DNA of 64,000 nucleotides. Origin: Escherichia phage vB_EcoM_F1. Of the stretch, positions 12,538 to 22,331 are shown piece by piece (positions within the stretch are counted from its first letter, which is position 1; each line of letters opens with the position of its first letter). Position numbers and translations under genes: made by a program. Location: the sequence record NC_054912.1. One strand, given 5' to 3'. Below the pieces are notes generated by a model. The model was not told where the DNA came from. It saw only the letters and a list, made by a program, of their open reading frames with translations, and ran no database searches.

Positions 12538-13083
12538 TTAAATTAACTCATACGCCTGGAACGCGTCATAGACATCTTTTTCTGTTTTAGATTGAGCATA
12601 ATTCAATGCATCAGCGATTTGCCATTTTTCTGCATCCTCAATATGTTTTGCATAGGTGCGTTTAACATAAGGAGAAAGTACTTTATCTACATTCGCAAAA
12701 GTCGTTCCGCCATATTGATGGGAAGCAACCTGTGCAGTAATTTGTGCCATAATTGCAGTAGCAACACCGATTGATTTAGGAGTTTCAATCTGTGCATTAC
12801 CAAGCTTAAATCCATTCTCAAGCATTCCTTTTAAATCTACTAAACAGCAATTAGTAAATGGAAGAGCAGGGGAATAATCAATATCGTGGAAATGAATAAT
12901 TCCGCTTTCATGCGCTTTCATAATAAAAGACGGGACCATATTTTTGGCAATGTGTTTAGACACAATACCAGCCATAAGGTCCCGTTGAGTTGGAAAAACA
13001 CGAGAATCTTTATTAGCATTCTCGTTTAAAAGGTCTTTATTAGTTTTATGAATCAATCCTTCAATTTCTTTTTCAATTGTCAT
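12538..13083 (-). CDS. nrdD: anaerobic ribonucleotide reductase NrdD, exon 1
   Basis: N-terminal NrdD sequence; the ORF reads through the 5' splice site, so the 3' boundary is approximate. Confidence 0.85.
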   Translation of the reverse strand: MTIEKEIEGLIHKTNKDLLNENANKDSRVFPTQRDLMAGIVSKHIAKNMVPSFIMKAHESGIIHFHDIDYSPALPFTNCCLVDLKGMLENGFKLGNAQIETPKSIGVATAIMAQITAQVASHQYGGTTFANVDKVLSPYVKRTYAKHIEDAEKWQIADALNYAQSKTEKDVYDAFQAYELI

Positions 13084-14625: not shown

Positions 14626-14804
14626 TTAGAAATAGACTTTTCGCCATTAGAATAATAAACTTCGAGTTTAGCACGATTATTTTTAATTTGAATAACCTTT
14701 GCTGTCATCAAAGTTCCATACCCATAATAAACTGCAACTTCATCACCTACATATACCGCGCTTCCGCGGTAATCGTGAATATAGTCAGTTCCTTCGATCA
14801 TCAT
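14589..14804 (-). CDS. hypothetical small protein
   Basis: 71-aa ORF. Confidence 0.45.
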   Translation of the reverse strand: MMIEGTDYIHDYRGSAVYVGDEVAVYYGYGTLMTAKVIQIKNNRAKLEVYYSNGEKSISKWKYGDCMVKLG

Positions 14805-15064
14805 TTAAAATATTCTCGCAGTTGGTCAAATCCACCAATATGACTTCCATCAGGAGCAAATACCTGGGGCATTGTCAAGCCAATTTGAGTATCACGACCT
14901 AGTTTAGTCAGAATCTCAGCGATTTTCTCATCATCAAAAACACCTTTTTCCGGCATAATGTTGATAAATTCAAACGGCTGTTTCTTCACGGTCAAAAGAC
15001 GTTTTGCATTATCGCAATACACACATTTATGAATGTTGCTATCATAACCATATACTTTAAACAT
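14801..15064 (-). CDS. nrdC: phage thioredoxin/glutaredoxin
   Basis: 87 aa with CVYC active-site motif. Confidence 0.9.
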   Translation of the reverse strand: MFKVYGYDSNIHKCVYCDNAKRLLTVKKQPFEFINIMPEKGVFDDEKIAEILTKLGRDTQIGLTMPQVFAPDGSHIGGFDQLREYFK

Positions 15065-15065
15065 A

Positions 15066-15308
15066 TTATTCCTTAATTCCTAGTACTTGTTTAAAAGTCT
15101 CGTCGTAATCAAGACTTTGGCCCGTTTGTTCTTTATGTTTGTATATAATATCACTTACTTCTGATAGCATATTTTTATATGAACGAGTTAAAGCAGATTT
15201 AAGCACGCTGTATCTATCAGGAAATTTACCATGTTCATTATAATAAGCTATTGCTAATTCACGGACTGCCTTTTCAGCAGCCTCCATATATTCTTTACGC
15301 TTGGTCAT
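15066..15308 (-). CDS. hypothetical protein (nrdC.1 position)
   Basis: About 80 aa from the internal Met MTKRKEY; the listed ORF extends to 15449. Confidence 0.45.
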
Positions 15309-15609
15309 TTTCTTCTCGGTCAAATCGGTGTTTACAATGGCGACATTTATAACGAAGATTACTAGTCTGCCAATGGACCAATTGCACCTGTTCAGTTCCA
15401 CATTCAGGGCAATTAGGAACGTTTTTAGAAGCCCTTTCACGACGTTCAACCATGACCATTACAGAATCCCAATTAATAGGAGGGCTATAATCATCACAAC
15501 CATGAATCTTTCCACGCATTTCCAAATCGTCTTCTTCACCAGCCATAATAATTTTAATTAGACTAGAATTACTTGAAGCTGCAATGTCTTCTAATAAACG
15601 CTTTTTCAT
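15295..15609 (-). CDS. zinc-ribbon small protein
   Basis: 104 aa with CPEC...CRHC. Confidence 0.5.
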
Positions 15610-16532
15610 TTCAATACCTCAATAGCATTACGTAAACCATTTGCTTTGGAGGTTAAAGCCTTAAGAACTTTAGTATGCTCTTCAATTTGTTTTTCAACTT
15701 CAGCCAAACGGGCATTGAGATATTCGCGTTCTTCTTTCATAGTATCATTCCCATGATTGGGTTTTGGTGCAGATTTAAATTCACTAGGGTCCTTTAACTT
15801 AATAACAAATTTAGTTTCAAACAGTGAAAGACCATAATTCGTATTATCATCAAAGGATTTAACTACATCCATATTAGATAATAACTCATGCAAATTATAA
15901 GACAAAGAACTAATAGTTTCATTGTGTTTATTAGCTTCGCGTGGTTTCATATACGGAAGATTTTTATATATCTCATGCGGAGCGCAAACGATAATTGACA
16001 ATTCAAATTGTCCATTCTGGGACGATGGAATGAATTTAGCCGTAACCCAGTCTTTTACATTCACATTAATAGTACGGTTATCACCATGACAAAACAGTCT
16101 ACGAGAATGCTTAAAAAGCATATTCACGTTATTATTGAATTCGTGTGAAAATTCACTAGCAAATTTTTCTTTACTATCTTTAGAAAACCATTCTTCTAAA
16201 TAAGTTCTTTTCACGTCGTTAATAATATTAAATGTAACAACACTAGCATTTGATACATTAGTCTCAATGTAGCTTGGATACATAAATTTTTTAACATTAT
16301 TAACAGCTATCACAGAAGATAGTAATCGGGAACGTTTGAACCACTCGAGCAAAGAACCAAGAGAATGTGAATACGCATTTTGTGTATCTTTACAAATATG
16401 GTTTTCCCATCCAATATAGTCTAAAAAATCACGAAGAATATTATTGATTACTGCTCTGTGTCCGATCTGATAATTACGGTGTTTAGTAATAAGACTGTCA
16501 AAATAATCAATATAATGTTTACGAGTTTTCAT
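15606..16532 (-). CDS. paralogue A of a four-gene family with C-terminal coiled coil
   Basis: 308 aa; shares (L/F)xxMDVVxS and the C-terminal heptad helix with the next three genes. Confidence 0.6.
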   Translation of the reverse strand: MKTRKHYIDYFDSLITKHRNYQIGHRAVINNILRDFLDYIGWENHICKDTQNAYSHSLGSLLEWFKRSRLLSSVIAVNNVKKFMYPSYIETNVSNASVVTFNIINDVKRTYLEEWFSKDSKEKFASEFSHEFNNNVNMLFKHSRRLFCHGDNRTINVNVKDWVTAKFIPSSQNGQFELSIIVCAPHEIYKNLPYMKPREANKHNETISSLSYNLHELLSNMDVVKSFDDNTNYGLSLFETKFVIKLKDPSEFKSAPKPNHGNDTMKEEREYLNARLAEVEKQIEEHTKVLKALTSKANGLRNAIEVLK

Positions 16533-16586
16533 GTTCTTCTCACTTGGTTAATGATTTATGCTCCGAGCCATCCTTGGCTTTAAATT

Positions 16587-17588
16587 TTACTTAATTAACT
16601 GTAAAGCTTGTTCAAGACGATCAAGGCGATTAACAGATTCTTCCCAAATCCTTTTAGCCTGCTCATATTCTTTGTGCGCTTTATTAGAAATTTCTAGAAC
16701 TTCTTTATAAGCTTTTTCTAATGCAATAACTTCTGGACGAATTTCTACCGGTTCAGGTGAATCATCAAGATTATCCATTAGTTCCTCAAGAGTAGTTTCT
16801 TCTTTAGGAGTATTCACAATTTCATCACATTTTTGTTGATAAATTTCTTTACTAGTAGGTGAATAAGTACATTTCACTTCACGAAGACTAACTACAATTT
16901 TATATCCTTCCCAACCACACAGATTTTTGAAAGGATATGTATGAATACTTTTTACAGTTTTCATACAGCCCAAAGCCGCCTCTAATTGATGAGTTGTGGT
17001 TCTAGCAATTGAGAAAAATTTATTAATATTCTTTTGGTTAGTTTCTGGTGTAAAAAATCTGTAATTAATAAAAATAGCTACTTTGTTTTTATCAAGCTCA
17101 TATTCTTCTGCTATAATCATATCATCAGCTAAGGGATGAATTTGACGATAATCGCCATAACATAATTTAGAAGCTGATTTTAGAATTTGCTTCGTAAAAC
17201 TCCTAAATTCACTAACCCAACGACGAGTAAAAATATTCTCAGGGTCTTCTTTATTATTAAGATGATAAGAATTAACATCACCGAACCAATTATATCCTAC
17301 TACATCTTTGGTTCGTTTAATTTCTTTCCCAAAATTACCAAGAATATCCCGATTAACCAAATATGAAAGAAGACGAGACTCTTTAAAAGTTTTCTTGATA
17401 ACATCTTTATCTACACGGCTAGAAATTTTACGAATTTCATGAATAAATTTAGTAGAAGAAACAATACTTGCATCAACACTATTGAGCCATTGATTGATAA
17501 TAGAAAGAACGATATTTTGACCAAACATCGGTATAGCTTTATCATCAATAACTCTATTGAATGATTTGATATATTCGTTACGAGTCAT
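16587..17588 (-). CDS. paralogue B of the four-gene family
   Basis: 333 aa from MTRNEY with a GAGGAG RBS; FRSFTKQILKSASKL motif shared with paralogue C. Confidence 0.6.
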   Translation of the reverse strand: MTRNEYIKSFNRVIDDKAIPMFGQNIVLSIINQWLNSVDASIVSSTKFIHEIRKISSRVDKDVIKKTFKESRLLSYLVNRDILGNFGKEIKRTKDVVGYNWFGDVNSYHLNNKEDPENIFTRRWVSEFRSFTKQILKSASKLCYGDYRQIHPLADDMIIAEEYELDKNKVAIFINYRFFTPETNQKNINKFFSIARTTTHQLEAALGCMKTVKSIHTYPFKNLCGWEGYKIVVSLREVKCTYSPTSKEIYQQKCDEIVNTPKEETTLEELMDNLDDSPEPVEIRPEVIALEKAYKEVLEISNKAHKEYEQAKRIWEESVNRLDRLEQALQLIK

Positions 17589-17613
17589 AATAATCTCCTC
17601 AGTAGAAAGTAAG

Positions 17614-17648
17614 AACATTATACCACATCCTTGTGGCAAAGTAAACTA
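17614..17648 (-). promoter_or_regulatory. T4-type early promoter
   Basis: Minus strand GTTTAC -35 and TGGTATAAT extended -10. Confidence 0.55.
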
Positions 17649-18671
17649 GTTCAGTGCATTTAGTGCATTGTTCAGTTTAGAACGTTGCTTTGTCAGATTT
17701 TGAACCCTTGACTGAGCTTGTTCTAACGCCTTTTCAGCTTCTAGCACTTCATTGGTCGCTTTAACGAGTTCATCATCTACTGCCTTAAGAGACTTCTCAA
17801 TCGCGTCAGCGTGCCATTTTTCTACAGGTTTAAAATTTGAATTTTCAGTAGGAAGAAAACTCACTTTATTAAGTTTACATGCATCTATATTGCTTGAGCT
17901 ATACATCCAAAATTTAGGATCGTTTGATAAGTAATTGGATAAATTTAAATTTAAGTTATCTTGTACTTCCTGCTTTTTCTCTTGCGTGACTTCGTCCTTT
18001 CTCAAAAAATCGTATTTAAATGAAACGATCATATCAAGTTCATACGTTGTTGTGTCTAACTTAAATCGTTCAAAACGAGGTAAAATCTTAGATTGAACAG
18101 CAGCAACAACATCCATATACTTAAATGCTTCTGTCAACTGTGATTTAAGGCATTCACAAATTGAAAGAGAATTTTTTGTATTAGGTTTAAAGCTAATTCG
18201 CGCAGTTCTATTATTTTCTTTTAATGGTCTTACTTCCATTTGAAGAGTATAACCATCAAATTTCAGATTCTTTAAGTTAATATCAGAACCTTTTAATCGA
18301 CTAGCAGTAGACAAAATTTGCTTTAATTGTCTACGGAACAGAGCAATAAATCTCCATTCAATACGATAATGATTTGGATTGAAAAATCCAGATGATAAAT
18401 CGACCTTACTCTGACCAACGCCTTGAACAAATAGAGGATTTTTATAATCAATAGTTTTACAGAAATCGGTGAGCTGTTCACGAGCAGTCATTTGTGTAAT
18501 ATATCCAGCTTTATCAAAATGACGTAACCATTCACTGCTATTCATATACTTAAAGTGAATATCACGATTAACTTTATCAGGGTCTAAATTATTTTGGCAC
18601 AAAAATGTCATAACATCACGAGTATAGCTGGCATTACGAACCATATCTTCAATTTGAGAACGAGTTTTCAT
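17646..18671 (-). CDS. paralogue C of the four-gene family
   Basis: 341 aa; FRRQLKQILSTASRL and MDVVAAV motifs; C-terminal coiled coil. Confidence 0.6.
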   Translation of the reverse strand: MKTRSQIEDMVRNASYTRDVMTFLCQNNLDPDKVNRDIHFKYMNSSEWLRHFDKAGYITQMTAREQLTDFCKTIDYKNPLFVQGVGQSKVDLSSGFFNPNHYRIEWRFIALFRRQLKQILSTASRLKGSDINLKNLKFDGYTLQMEVRPLKENNRTARISFKPNTKNSLSICECLKSQLTEAFKYMDVVAAVQSKILPRFERFKLDTTTYELDMIVSFKYDFLRKDEVTQEKKQEVQDNLNLNLSNYLSNDPKFWMYSSSNIDACKLNKVSFLPTENSNFKPVEKWHADAIEKSLKAVDDELVKATNEVLEAEKALEQAQSRVQNLTKQRSKLNNALNALN

Positions 18672-18679
18672 AGTGTTCC

Positions 18680-19567
18680 TTAAGATTTAAGTAAATCAAC
18701 AATTTTAATTAATTTTTCACGCTCAGATTTAGCTTTACTACTCAATCCAGATAGTCTGAAAATTTCATCGTCATACTGTTGAATAGAAATATTCAGCTCT
18801 TCAATTTGCTTATTAAAATAATCAATTTGTTCAGAATGTTTTTCGTTACTACGAACTGGTACAGGTTTTGTAGGTAATTTAGATGAACTGGATTCATCCG
18901 GGCGATAAATTAAAATACAACTTGAACCAATAGGGCATTTTGCACCAGATGAATATTCTAATGTTCCGGCTTCTTTTAAAACTTCAAAAGCTAAACAGAG
19001 ATGATGCCCCATATTAACATAATCAGTAGAGCGAGCTCTGATATAATAATCATCGCCGCGAATACTAAATTTAAAGCATTTAAGGTCTTCTGTATTATTG
19101 GTCTTAAAAATCATTTGTTTATCTAGACCTTTAGCTAATCGAGCGCCTAATGCTAATAATCGTCGTTGATTTTCCCACAAATCCGCAATCATTTGATCAA
19201 ATGATAATTTCGGCATTAGTCGACCATAAAGGTCGTATCCTTTATTATAATTGCGAAGGATTTCACTCGCATTAATACGAGACAATGCTCCAATTTTATT
19301 AAGGGCTTTCATGATGCGATTAGATAAACCCATTCCAGACCCATTTGTTCGTTGTAAATGTTTATCTAATCCAAACCCAATATCAACTTTAAATTTATCT
19401 AAAATTTCAGCATGAACATCTCTGTCAATAACATTCAAATCCAAAGTTGGGTTAAATCTATGAAAAAATTTATCTGGCTCTCCACGACGAAGTACAGTCC
19501 ATTCATTCAATTTTTTATTAACTAAAGATTTAATTACTGCATTGACATTATTAATTACGACTGACAT
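18680..19567 (-). CDS. paralogue D of the four-gene family
   Basis: About 295 aa from MSVV with a GAGGAA RBS; the listed ORF extends to 19588. Confidence 0.55.
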   Translation of the reverse strand: MSVVINNVNAVIKSLVNKKLNEWTVLRRGEPDKFFHRFNPTLDLNVIDRDVHAEILDKFKVDIGFGLDKHLQRTNGSGMGLSNRIMKALNKIGALSRINASEILRNYNKGYDLYGRLMPKLSFDQMIADLWENQRRLLALGARLAKGLDKQMIFKTNNTEDLKCFKFSIRGDDYYIRARSTDYVNMGHHLCLAFEVLKEAGTLEYSSGAKCPIGSSCILIYRPDESSSSKLPTKPVPVRSNEKHSEQIDYFNKQIEELNISIQQYDDEIFRLSGLSSKAKSEREKLIKIVDLLKS

Positions 19568-19574
19568 ATTTTCC

Positions 19575-19982
19575 TCACTCAATTTCAATTTTACTAAATA
19601 CGCAGAATATGATGGAAAAGACTATATAAGCACCACACACAGATTGAACTAATACCATTCCAAAGAACCAAACAATATTATCAAACAATGTCTGTTTTAC
19701 GTCGAAAGGACGTAAACTTACAGTAATATTATCGCCTTTTTCTATTGATGAATACATCTCTGGGGAAATATATTCGCTAAATCTATAACCGTCATTGAGT
19801 TCATATACAGCAATAAACGATAAACTAGATCCCTTTCCTTGAGTTCCTGTAAGGGTATTAACTACAGTAACATCATAATCTTTATAATGCATATAATCAT
19901 TAATTGCGTAATAACCATATGCAATTACTATACATAAACAACATATCAATAAATTCAATCTTTTAATTATCAACTGTTTCAT
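19575..19982 (-). CDS. membrane protein
   Basis: 135 aa with N- and C-terminal hydrophobic helices. Confidence 0.5.
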   Translation of the reverse strand: MKQLIIKRLNLLICCLCIVIAYGYYAINDYMHYKDYDVTVVNTLTGTQGKGSSLSFIAVYELNDGYRFSEYISPEMYSSIEKGDNITVSLRPFDVKQTLFDNIVWFFGMVLVQSVCGAYIVFSIIFCVFSKIEIE

Positions 19983-20037
19983 AATAATCTCAGTTAAAAG
20001 GGCTTAGAACCATTATACCATCCTTGGTATAAAGCGG

Positions 20038-20565
20038 TTATGCGAGTACCGTCTTTAACCGTTCTTCAAACTTCCGAAGAGTATTCTGGCGTTCAGCTCT
20101 TTGCTTTTTGTAAGTTTCAATACGCTCTGAAATGAGAGTGTATCGTTCATTTACTGATTCTTTCATAAAATCAGGAATTTCACGAGAAGATTTAATCTCG
20201 TCAAATTTATCAATAACAGCTTGCTCTTCAGCAATTAAGTTATCATACATCAAAATATCTTTCTTGATGAACTCAATATCTTCTTGAGTTACACGAGATA
20301 ATTTAGATGCTTTATCCTTTTTGTACTGTTCATTAGTATCACGAGACCAGTGTAATGTACGATTTTTATTCGTATTTTTGTAAATTTCTACAATACCGAT
20401 CTCATCAATAATAACGATCCAATTCCAACGAGATTTGTAAATTTGCCCTCCATCAACCGTGATTTCACCTCCGATTGAGATGTCATTAAAGAACTTGCTT
20501 TGTGCTTCAGATTTAAATTTACCATCATTGTAGTTTACCAAGTTGAAAATATCTTTAGCATTCAT
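20038..20565 (-). CDS. hypothetical protein with C-terminal coiled coil
   Basis: About 175 aa from MNAKDIF with a GGAGGA RBS; the listed ORF extends to 20625. Confidence 0.5.
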   Translation of the reverse strand: MNAKDIFNLVNYNDGKFKSEAQSKFFNDISIGGEITVDGGQIYKSRWNWIVIIDEIGIVEIYKNTNKNRTLHWSRDTNEQYKKDKASKLSRVTQEDIEFIKKDILMYDNLIAEEQAVIDKFDEIKSSREIPDFMKESVNERYTLISERIETYKKQRAERQNTLRKFEERLKTVLA

Positions 20566-20591
20566 TTTCTGTTCCTCCGTAGTTGATAGTT

Positions 20592-20624
20592 GTATAGTAC
20601 CACAGAGGAACGGTCTTGTAAACA
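20592..20624 (-). promoter_or_regulatory. T4-type early promoter
   Basis: Same module as other early promoters (ttgtatagtacca ... tgtaaacaa on plus). Confidence 0.5.
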
Positions 20625-20625
20625 A

Positions 20626-20940
20626 CTAAAAGAAACTTCTTTCACAATTTTTTCCACTGAACCACGCGCTCACTGCTTTCTTAGTCTCAGGAGCAGTGTT
20701 ATCCATAAACCATTCAAAGGCAGCCTTTTTATGATTCTGGAGAGCTTCTCGGGCTTTAATCTGCTCACGGTCTATTAACACTAACATATGAGCCTTTCTT
20801 GTCACCAAGGGCTTCTTATGATTCTTGGAGTATTCCCAGTCATTTGTCCAACGCATTGTCGTTGCGAACTGAAATACTGCTTCTTTAATTTTAGTTTCGT
20901 AAATTTCACGAGCCTTTGAGTATAACATCATTACCTCCAT
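20626..20940 (-). CDS. hypothetical protein
   Basis: 104-aa ORF. Confidence 0.5.
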   Translation of the reverse strand: MEVMMLYSKAREIYETKIKEAVFQFATTMRWTNDWEYSKNHKKPLVTRKAHMLVLIDREQIKAREALQNHKKAAFEWFMDNTAPETKKAVSAWFSGKNCERSFF

Positions 20941-21029
20941 TTACCAGTTTAATTCTAGTCATCTTTTTGATGGCAGTCCATATAATCTATTTCTGAACTG
21001 CCTTTTTGTCATAGAAGGCCTCTTATGAA

Positions 21030-21998
21030 TTATTTCAGAAGAGTAACCTCAGCAATTTCTTCCCAACCATTTTTGTCGGTCATAATAAAGTCAGCAAGAT
21101 AAAGAGCAGTACGCAGTGAAACATTGCGTAAACGATTAACATTGACTTTCATCCATGATAATGCTTTATAAGTTTCTTCATCAGAAAGACCGCGCTTTTG
21201 CATCATGTCAGTTGAAAGAATAACATCTTCAACCCTGACCATAATTTCTTCATTAGTGTGAACACCCAAATCCAAATAAACCGAGCGGGACACTAATGCT
21301 TGTAAATGTGGAGCAAGTTTAGTACCACGGTCTAATTCGCGGTCAATGTCAACGTTTGTGATAAAAACAATCGTTCCTTTAAATTCAAACTCACGCTCAA
21401 TGCCTTTTTCTTCTAAGTAAGAAGATGCAGTGCTCCAGCAGACTTTACGGGTCTCTCCAGTGTCCAGAGCAGCTTTCAGAAGATTAAGAATGTCCATATC
21501 AGAGAAAACATCCACATCATCAATCAAAAGGACAGAATTCTCTTCACGATTATTCCAAAGCTGTTCATAAAGACCGATACCAGAGATTTTACCATTAATG
21601 CTTTTATACTCAATGTATCCAATGTCATTTGCTTTATTTAAAGCTTTATCTAAAGAATACGTTTTACCAATACCCGCCGCACCAGAGATAATTAATGAAC
21701 GAATGTTTCCGTTAATAATACCATTCGTCATCATTCCCATAACATTAAATCTTTTATTAATGCGGGTTTTCATATCTTCATATGATTCTTTAACTTCTTC
21801 AACTTTTACACCATCATATGAAATGTCTGATTTGTAAACCCAAACACCGCGACGCTTACCGTCAATTTCAACAAAAACTTTACCATCTCCTTGTGCATCT
21901 ACCGGAGCATTATCTGGGAACCATTCACCTAAGAGCTCAAAAGTTCCAGAGATTTCTTTACCGAAGTAGATACCCTTATTGATAGTTACAGTTTTCAT
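21030..21998 (-). CDS. AAA+/P-loop ATPase
   Basis: Walker A GAAGIGKTY, Walker B LLIDDVD; start taken at MKTVTINKG with a GGAG RBS. Confidence 0.7.
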   Translation of the reverse strand: MKTVTINKGIYFGKEISGTFELLGEWFPDNAPVDAQGDGKVFVEIDGKRRGVWVYKSDISYDGVKVEEVKESYEDMKTRINKRFNVMGMMTNGIINGNIRSLIISGAAGIGKTYSLDKALNKANDIGYIEYKSINGKISGIGLYEQLWNNREENSVLLIDDVDVFSDMDILNLLKAALDTGETRKVCWSTASSYLEEKGIEREFEFKGTIVFITNVDIDRELDRGTKLAPHLQALVSRSVYLDLGVHTNEEIMVRVEDVILSTDMMQKRGLSDEETYKALSWMKVNVNRLRNVSLRTALYLADFIMTDKNGWEEIAEVTLLK

Positions 21999-22030
21999 TT
22001 TATTCTCCAATCTCACATTTGTTTTGATAG

Positions 22031-22067: not shown

Positions 22068-22331
22068 TTATTTTAACGTTCGCCAAATTTTTACTGCTTC
22101 ACGGCGAGATACTTCTACAGCTCCAAGTTCTACAGCTTTTTGGCGTCGCCGAGCGTGTAAGTCATAATGTTTAATGCGTTTATCTTGAAACCAAGAACGT
22201 TTCATTCCTATTGCTTCTGCCATTTCGTGAAGCTCTTCAATATCTCCATCAGTGAACATATGACAATTTTTAGTTGGATGACCGCGAAGTTTCCATCCAT
22301 GATTCATTAAAACATCTACGTAAACTGTCAT
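22068..22331 (-). CDS. DUF4031-like small protein
   Basis: 87 aa; MTVYVDV...CHMFTD...HYDL pattern as I recall for DUF4031; family assignment from memory. Confidence 0.5.
   Translation of the reverse strand: MTVYVDVLMNHGWKLRGHPTKNCHMFTDGDIEELHEMAEAIGMKRSWFQDKRIKHYDLHARRRQKAVELGAVEVSRREAVKIWRTLK

Follow-up and report, generated by a model that had tools for sequence, protein, structure and literature searches.

What do four neighbouring open reading frames (ORFs) with similar ends do for a phage, and do they belong to one family? The question was raised by a locus of Escherichia phage vB_EcoM_F1 (NC_054912.1), within the 64,000-nucleotide stretch of DNA that was analysed, called here the window. 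An earlier note on this DNA had described four consecutive ORFs at 15606-19567, and these were found there, all on the minus strand. By comparison with the annotated T4 genome they are orthologues of T4 nrdC.3, nrdC.4, nrdC.5 and nrdC.6:

15606..16532, minus strand, nrdC.3 orthologue (paralog A), 308 amino acids (aa)
16587..17588, minus strand, nrdC.4 orthologue (paralog B), 333 aa from ATG
17646..18671, minus strand, nrdC.5 orthologue (paralog C), 341 aa, orthologue of the T4 anti-Dsr1 gene
18680..19567, minus strand, nrdC.6 orthologue (paralog D), 295 aa from ATG

The answer favoured here, with a probability of roughly 60%, is that nrdC.3-nrdC.6 form a tandem-duplicated Straboviridae family of early, non-essential counter-defence proteins that oligomerise and bind their targets through variable bodies.

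The region 15000-20000 of the window was 100% identical to Escherichia phage vB_EcoM_FN (MZ170041.1) and 94.8-96% identical to T4, RB32 and relatives, with the T4 gene order kept gene for gene. The array was flanked by nrdC.2 and nrdC (thioredoxin) on one side and by nrdC.7, nrdC.8 and nrdC.10 on the other. The nrdC.3 product shared 91% aa identity with T4 NrdC.3, and that of nrdC.5, which sits between nrdC.4 and nrdC.6 as in T4, shared 94% with T4 NrdC.5. A mechanical ORF listing extended nrdC.4 to a TTG at 17639 and likewise gave nrdC.6 a longer TTG-initiated form. These longer forms are unlikely, since a Shine-Dalgarno-like GAGG/AGGA lies 5-9 nt upstream of each of the four ATGs, with GAGGAG 7 nt before the ATG of nrdC.4.

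Homology of the four proteins

Pairwise BLASTP gave E 8e-5 for A-B and a marginal 0.018 for B-C, and D matched the others through its tail alone; being too weak except for A-B, it was set aside as the decider of homology. Profile alignment with hhalign joined A and B with a probability of 98% (E 4e-14, residues 1-228). The NrdC.5 profile was enlarged with distant relatives at 21-27% identity, collected by tblastn and hmmsearch from Gaprivervirus, Dhakavirus, Kagamiyamavirus and Mosigvirus. In this form it matched the A+B profile with a probability of 92% (E 8e-7, 128 core columns) and the NrdC.6 profile with a probability of 51% (E 1.5e-4, 66 columns) in the equivalent region, while NrdC.6 against A+B by sequence alone reached no significance. 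The profile alignment proposed in the earlier note as a check of homology thus came out well above chance for A-B, for C with A+B and for C-D.

For a ranking control, the 52 window ORFs of at least 150 aa, 48 of them unrelated, were all scored against each family profile. Self-matches aside, every family profile ranked its fellow paralogs first; the NrdC.5 profile gave A at 1e-4, B at 4.5e-4 and D at 1.3e-3, and the best unrelated ORF at 0.026. A bridge was also provided by the single-copy gp83 (324 aa) of Klebsiella Jiaodavirus, which matched both A+B (E 2.4e-7) and C (E 3.8e-6). NrdC.8, which is helix-ended too, was ruled out as a possible fifth member, as it was not among the top matches of any family profile.

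AlphaFold2 models were built from the family alignments for NrdC.4 and NrdC.6, with a mean predicted local distance difference test score (pLDDT) of 81.5 and 78, respectively. Both models had a common order of helices (H, h) and strands (E), which was H-H / H-H-h / E-E / H / E-E / linker / terminal helix. In Foldseek searches of BFVD, the NrdC.4 model matched NrdC.6 of phage JS10 with E 2e-5, and of 11 targets significant for the NrdC.6 model, eight were significant for the NrdC.4 model as well. A shared three-dimensional fold is therefore supported at the level of predicted models for the NrdC.4 and NrdC.6 pair, and the structural check suggested earlier was borne out for the two models that it covered.

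It might be argued that the resemblance is superficial, and that unrelated proteins share a coiled-coil tail and chance motifs. The weak BLASTP results outside A-B would agree with that, as would the similarity of D to the others in the tail alone and the finding that a hidden Markov model (HMM) of A+B recovered no C or D relatives from 1.84 billion proteins. The profile E-values of 8e-7 and 1.5e-4, however, sit in the globular core and not in the tail, the paralogs rank above all 48 unrelated window ORFs, B and D share a predicted topology and common Foldseek targets, and a bridging sequence exists in Klebsiella phages. Chance resemblance is very improbable and was largely refuted, and all four proteins are very probably homologous and members of one superfamily.

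The shared motifs that had been claimed for all four proteins were found in strict form in some of them. The first, FR(S/R)xxKQIL(K/S)(S/T)AS(K/R)L, was present in nrdC.4 and nrdC.5 and absent in its strict form from nrdC.3 and nrdC.6:

17163..17207, minus strand, motif 1 in nrdC.4 (FRSFTKQILKSASKL), within the core helix pair 119-140
18294..18338, minus strand, motif 1 in nrdC.5 (FRRQLKQILSTASRL), paired by hhalign with the equivalents in nrdC.3, nrdC.4 and nrdC.6

The second, (L/F)xxMDVVxS, held for nrdC.3 and not for the others, with MDVV in nrdC.5 and MKTV in nrdC.4. Degenerate counterparts stood at equivalent positions in all four proteins, in three helical segments (about 64-85, 124-148 and 193-212 in NrdC.4 numbering). 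The N-terminal halves, which had been described as diverged, also need a narrower statement: similarity lay mainly in residues ~50-230, beyond the C-terminal part, and nrdC.3 and nrdC.4 could be aligned from residue 1.

In the databases the four proteins are spread over separate families. NrdC.5 matched Pfam DUF7235 (PF23882) over its full length with 382.3 bits, against a gathering score of 30 bits. NrdC.3 reached 14.9 bits with this family, below the cut-off and in the C-terminal helix alone, and NrdC.4 and NrdC.6 gave no PF23882 match, so nrdC.3, nrdC.4 and nrdC.6 are outside DUF7235 as Pfam defines that family. Full-length matches to phrog_1435 were obtained for nrdC.3 (E 3.6e-98) and nrdC.4 (E 3.3e-164), which PHROGs already groups together, and to phrog_2257 for nrdC.6 (E 8.5e-153); nrdC.5 is filed apart as phrog_2351. 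Homologues of nrdC.4 carry PF26897 and those of nrdC.6 carry PF26899. Outside DUF7235, Pfam and NCBIfam scans of the four proteins returned weak coiled-coil noise alone. PDB sequence searches with the array proteins gave no match, no enzyme-like fold or domain was found, and none of the four matched a thioredoxin family in Pfam or NCBIfam.

The last result bears on annotation. MZ170041.1 and many related records name all the nrdC.x genes (window 14801-22016) as thioredoxin, a label that derives from gene names reading nrdC.x, and the sole true thioredoxin in that interval was nrdC itself (14801-15064). This widespread mis-annotation is corrected here.

Body, linker and terminal helix

The four proteins have a three-part plan. 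A basic alpha/beta body of ~220-240 residues comes first, a disordered linker of 20-60 residues follows, and an amphipathic heptad helix of ~45-55 residues forms the C-terminus. Both AlphaFold2 models passed from a globular body through a low-confidence linker (pLDDT < 50 at residues 261-284 of NrdC.4) to a long terminal helix or helices. The bodies were basic, with an isoelectric point (pI) of 8.8-9.6 and a net charge of +4 to +12. Conservation within families was highest in the C-terminal helix and the helical core and lowest in the sheet region and linker.

The heptad-rich terminal helix that the earlier note had seen in all four proteins was upheld. In the last 49 residues, hydrophobic residues occupied 0.71-0.93 of the a/d heptad positions across the four, and composition-preserving shuffles of these residues gave p < 0.0005, 0.016, < 0.0005 and 0.0015 for A-D, so that no value exceeded 0.016; helices were predicted by AlphaFold2 in both modelled proteins. 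The helices are:

15609..15746, minus strand, C-terminal heptad helix of nrdC.3, residues 263-308, a/d hydrophobic fraction 0.79, p < 0.0005
16590..16736, minus strand, C-terminal helix of nrdC.4, residues 285-333, AlphaFold2 helix 285-332, heptad p 0.016
17649..17816, minus strand, C-terminal heptad helix of nrdC.5, residues 286-341, a/d fraction 0.93, p < 0.0005
18683..18844, minus strand, C-terminal helices of nrdC.6, residues 242-295, AlphaFold2 helices 242-271 and 277-294, heptad p 0.0015

Tails of this kind could also join the four proteins into one hetero-oligomeric complex with a single early job, not necessarily anti-defence. The four genes are adjacent and on one strand, all of them end in a similar terminal helix (...L-x-x-A-[IL]-x-[LV]-[LI]-K), and this helix is among the best-conserved parts within each family. 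Such a complex is nevertheless quite unlikely, as genera carry anything from 1 to 4 copies and individual members are lost independently, the T4 reference NrdC.6 is without the helix, and plasmid-borne nrdC.5 alone was enough for plating on Dsr1 cells, although the passages that describe this assay leave the status of the neighbouring paralogs in the clone unstated.

A fast-evolving, dispensable family at one site

In every genome examined, members lay between nrdC.10 (adjoining nrdC.8 where annotated) and nrdC, in one to four copies:

Tequatrovirus, four copies: nrdC.3, nrdC.4, nrdC.5 and nrdC.6
Mosigvirus RB69, three copies: nrdC.3, nrdC.5-like and nrdC.6
Dhakavirus and Gaprivervirus, three copies: nrdC.4, nrdC.5-like and nrdC.6
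Acj61, two copies: p120 and p121, in tandem
Kagamiyamavirus, one copy: ORF091
Jiaodavirus, one copy: gp83

From the pattern of copies and members across genera, the nrdC.3/nrdC.4 split looks like the most recent duplication. The A+B HMM, searched against 1.84 billion cluster representatives, found only 9 close NrdC.3/4-like proteins, none of which led on to C or D, and nothing related outside phages; the homologues from the large database were T4-like phage proteins or T4-like-looking contigs only. The family is specific to Straboviridae (T4-like phages) and was made by tandem duplication.

At the level of fold, Foldseek reached Straboviridae of Acinetobacter, Klebsiella, Erwinia, Pectobacterium, Enterobacter, Yersinia and Serratia. 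Uncharacterised proteins of 300-370 aa in Acinetobacter phages Acj61 and Acj9, Pectobacterium phage PM2, Klebsiella phage Mineola, Erwinia phage Cronus and Enterobacter phage IME523 had the predicted fold of the array proteins, matching both models at E 1e-4 to 3e-8. Acj61 p120/p121, Klebsiella phage gp83 and EcS1 ORF091 also have the C-terminal helix of the array proteins and sit at the nrdC.10-nrdC site. These uncharacterised relatives differ from the array in having 11-18% sequence identity to it and one or two copies.

Three genes adjoining family members, Acj61 p118, Klebsiella phage gp84 and EcS1 ORF092, were judged non-members. Two of them, gp84 (L009 12258-13076) and ORF092 (L007 5297-6073), have a common C-terminus, YGSLPK..YRG..F.ATFE.AKDD.TH, and represent another uncharacterised family at the same locus.

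Divergence in the array was fast. Between genera the paralogs were 22-54% identical, against 78-91% for gp49, NrdC and NrdC.10; within Tequatrovirus, NrdC.3 fell to 60% identity while flanking genes stayed at 97-100%. Three allele classes of nrdC.3 were distinguished by tblastn, at >90%, ~60% and ~55% identity, and a mosaic central cassette was located in this gene:

15718..16412, minus strand, mosaic central cassette of nrdC.3, with DNA identity to RB7 of 53-76% against 92-99% in the flanks

The array is shown to be a single fast-evolving, dispensable paralog family; losses from it are common, and it is prone to deletion between paralogs. The serial duplication and diversification read from this locus earlier agree with the profile statistics, the common topology of B and D, the copy number at one site and the divergence faster than that of the flanks.

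The helix is missing from two annotated members. In the T4 reference (L001 6740-7567), one A is absent at window position 18793 relative to the window phage and RB7. This 1-nt deletion in nrdC.6 causes a frameshift, leaving 275 aa and removing the terminal helix; since the downstream DNA is still conserved, it may be a recent mutation or a sequencing error. The RB69 gene annotated as nrdC.5 (L002 6973-7875, 300 aa) also ends without the helix, other Mosigvirus relatives align through NrdC.5 residue 340, and RB69 nrdC.5 was probably shortened by a frameshift.

Two natural junctions between paralogs were observed. In phage ACG-C40 (L004 7802-8213) a deletion joins the start of nrdC.5 to the end of nrdC.3, and in the metagenomic protein P0119 the middle of NrdC.5 is fused to an NrdC.3-like C-terminal half.

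Counter-defence against Dsr1 and comparison with known systems

The function of one member has been reported. In the experiments on T4 deletions described by Srikant, Guegler and Laub (eLife 2022, PMC9391042), an evolved T4 clone with compensatory deletions lost infection of ECOR17 and regained it when dsr1 was deleted from the host. Cloned dsr1 protected MG1655 from the evolved clone, and plasmid-borne T4 nrdC.5 restored plating of the deletion clone on MG1655 with the ECOR17 dsr1. The same account describes the deleted genes as non-essential on the laboratory host and the nrdC.x array genes as expressed early. A 2026 preprint (PMC12803255) gives Dsr1 a bilobed tetratricopeptide repeat (TPR) sensor homologous to that of Avs7, and in a co-expression screen of 73 phage ZL19 genes its trigger was the major capsid protein, a late protein. 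The host-interaction or anti-defence role guessed earlier for the whole array accordingly has published support in T4 nrdC.5 against Dsr1, and we infer it for nrdC.3, nrdC.4 and nrdC.6.

A mechanism could be put forward as follows. Expressed early, NrdC.5 would block Dsr1, an NAD+-depleting sirtuin. The C-terminal helix would oligomerise each protein, and the variable body, especially the central cassette, would set the target, binding and blocking a defence protein. A binder is favoured over an enzyme because no enzyme-like fold or domain was found. Binding would most likely be to the defence protein's sensor region and would precede the appearance of the late capsid protein that is reported to trigger Dsr1. 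The nrdC.3, nrdC.4 and nrdC.6 products might target different defence proteins or further variants of the Dsr1/Avs7 type, and through duplication, loss of genes and swapping of the central cassette the array would keep pace with the defences that current hosts carry.

Several points weigh against the counter-defence family proposed here. Experimental support is confined to NrdC.5 and is genetic in kind, no literature was found on a phenotype of nrdC.3, nrdC.4 or nrdC.6, and none was found on the binding, structure or mechanism of NrdC.5 or, beyond the 2022 eLife paper, on DUF7235 or anti-Dsr1 activity. Both oligomerisation through the helix and binding of defence proteins by the body are steps that we infer. 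The sequence-only link of NrdC.6 is weak (probability 51%), the place of NrdC.5 in the fold family is suggested by profile statistics, and the basic bodies (pI 8.8-9.6) would also suit nucleic-acid binding.

The last point leads to another reading, in which the proteins are nucleic-acid-binding or host-takeover factors, acting as dimers on host DNA, RNA or RNA polymerase, with an indirect effect of NrdC.5 on Dsr1. A coiled coil behind a basic body (net charge +4 to +12) fits such a role, and so does the early expression of the array genes. Yet Pfam and NCBIfam scans turned up no nucleic-acid-binding domain, and fast divergence, cassette exchange and frequent loss would be unusual for factors acting on conserved host machinery; we regard this reading as unlikely, and the counter-defence family is preferred.

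A bolder extension of the preferred reading is offered tentatively, as a possibility that we consider doubtful. The family may be a modular repertoire across Straboviridae, in which hypervariable bodies are brought together into oligomers by a constant coiled-coil handle and each paralog or allele blocks a different one of the capsid-recognising TPR-sensor proteins, a group made up of Dsr1, Avs7 and relatives that carry other effectors. Tandem duplication and cassette exchange would supply the new specificities.

The T4 ORFs have long been described and the function of nrdC.5 is published; what is new is the superfamily link, the Straboviridae-wide distribution and the modular evolution. The genes nrdC.3, nrdC.4 and nrdC.6 become three concrete candidates for new counter-defence genes, and the definition of constant parts (helical core and C-terminal helix) and variable parts (central cassette and linker) gives a guide for experiments. 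Dsr1 and related capsid-sensing defences are widespread, and their evasion by T4 is known so far through nrdC.5 genetics, which makes the family relevant to the host range of T4-like therapeutic phages, both to explaining it and to engineering it.

Other features of the neighbourhood were as follows. A candidate early-type promoter was found directly before nrdC.4 by consensus match only, and it overlaps a small hairpin at 17621-17638:

17617..17645, minus strand, candidate promoter TTTACT-17-TATAAT with an upstream TG

The promoter/terminator scan overall was no better than chance (32 found against 29.2 expected), and for this reason no transcription units are claimed. An ORF of 87 aa (window 22068-22331, minus strand) lies beyond nrdC.10 toward nrdC.11 and has no T4 counterpart at that position; in ACG-C40 the nrdC.10-nrdC.11 interval holds a DUF4031-domain gene of equal size (264 bp), alike in size and place. 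At window 12538-13083 (minus strand) the N-terminal part of NrdD stops after 181 aa, presumably in keeping with the intron-interrupted nrdD of T4.

Among known systems, T4 NrdC.5 (DUF7235) is the closest, and the third gene of the array, which encodes a protein with 94% aa identity to it, sits at the corresponding place and scores 382 bits with the family model, is its direct orthologue. Compared with it, nrdC.3, nrdC.4 and nrdC.6 are diverged paralogs of the same architecture, placed in separate families (PF26897, PF26899, PHROGs 1435 and 2257). DSAD1 of phage SPbeta inhibits the sirtuin defence DSR2 by binding the defence protein, and as a phage protein stopping an NADase defence of the SIR2 type it is the nearest functional analogue; no sequence or fold similarity of the array proteins to DSAD1 was found. 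Finally, the T4 anti-toxin-antitoxin island (dmd, tifA, adfA) and the anti-CRISPR and anti-restriction-modification islands of other phages bring together non-essential early genes of small to medium size, each of which counters a different host defence. Like the array, anti-defence islands gain, lose and amplify genes quickly; they hold unrelated genes, whereas the array is one family expanded in tandem with a common proposed oligomerisation tail.

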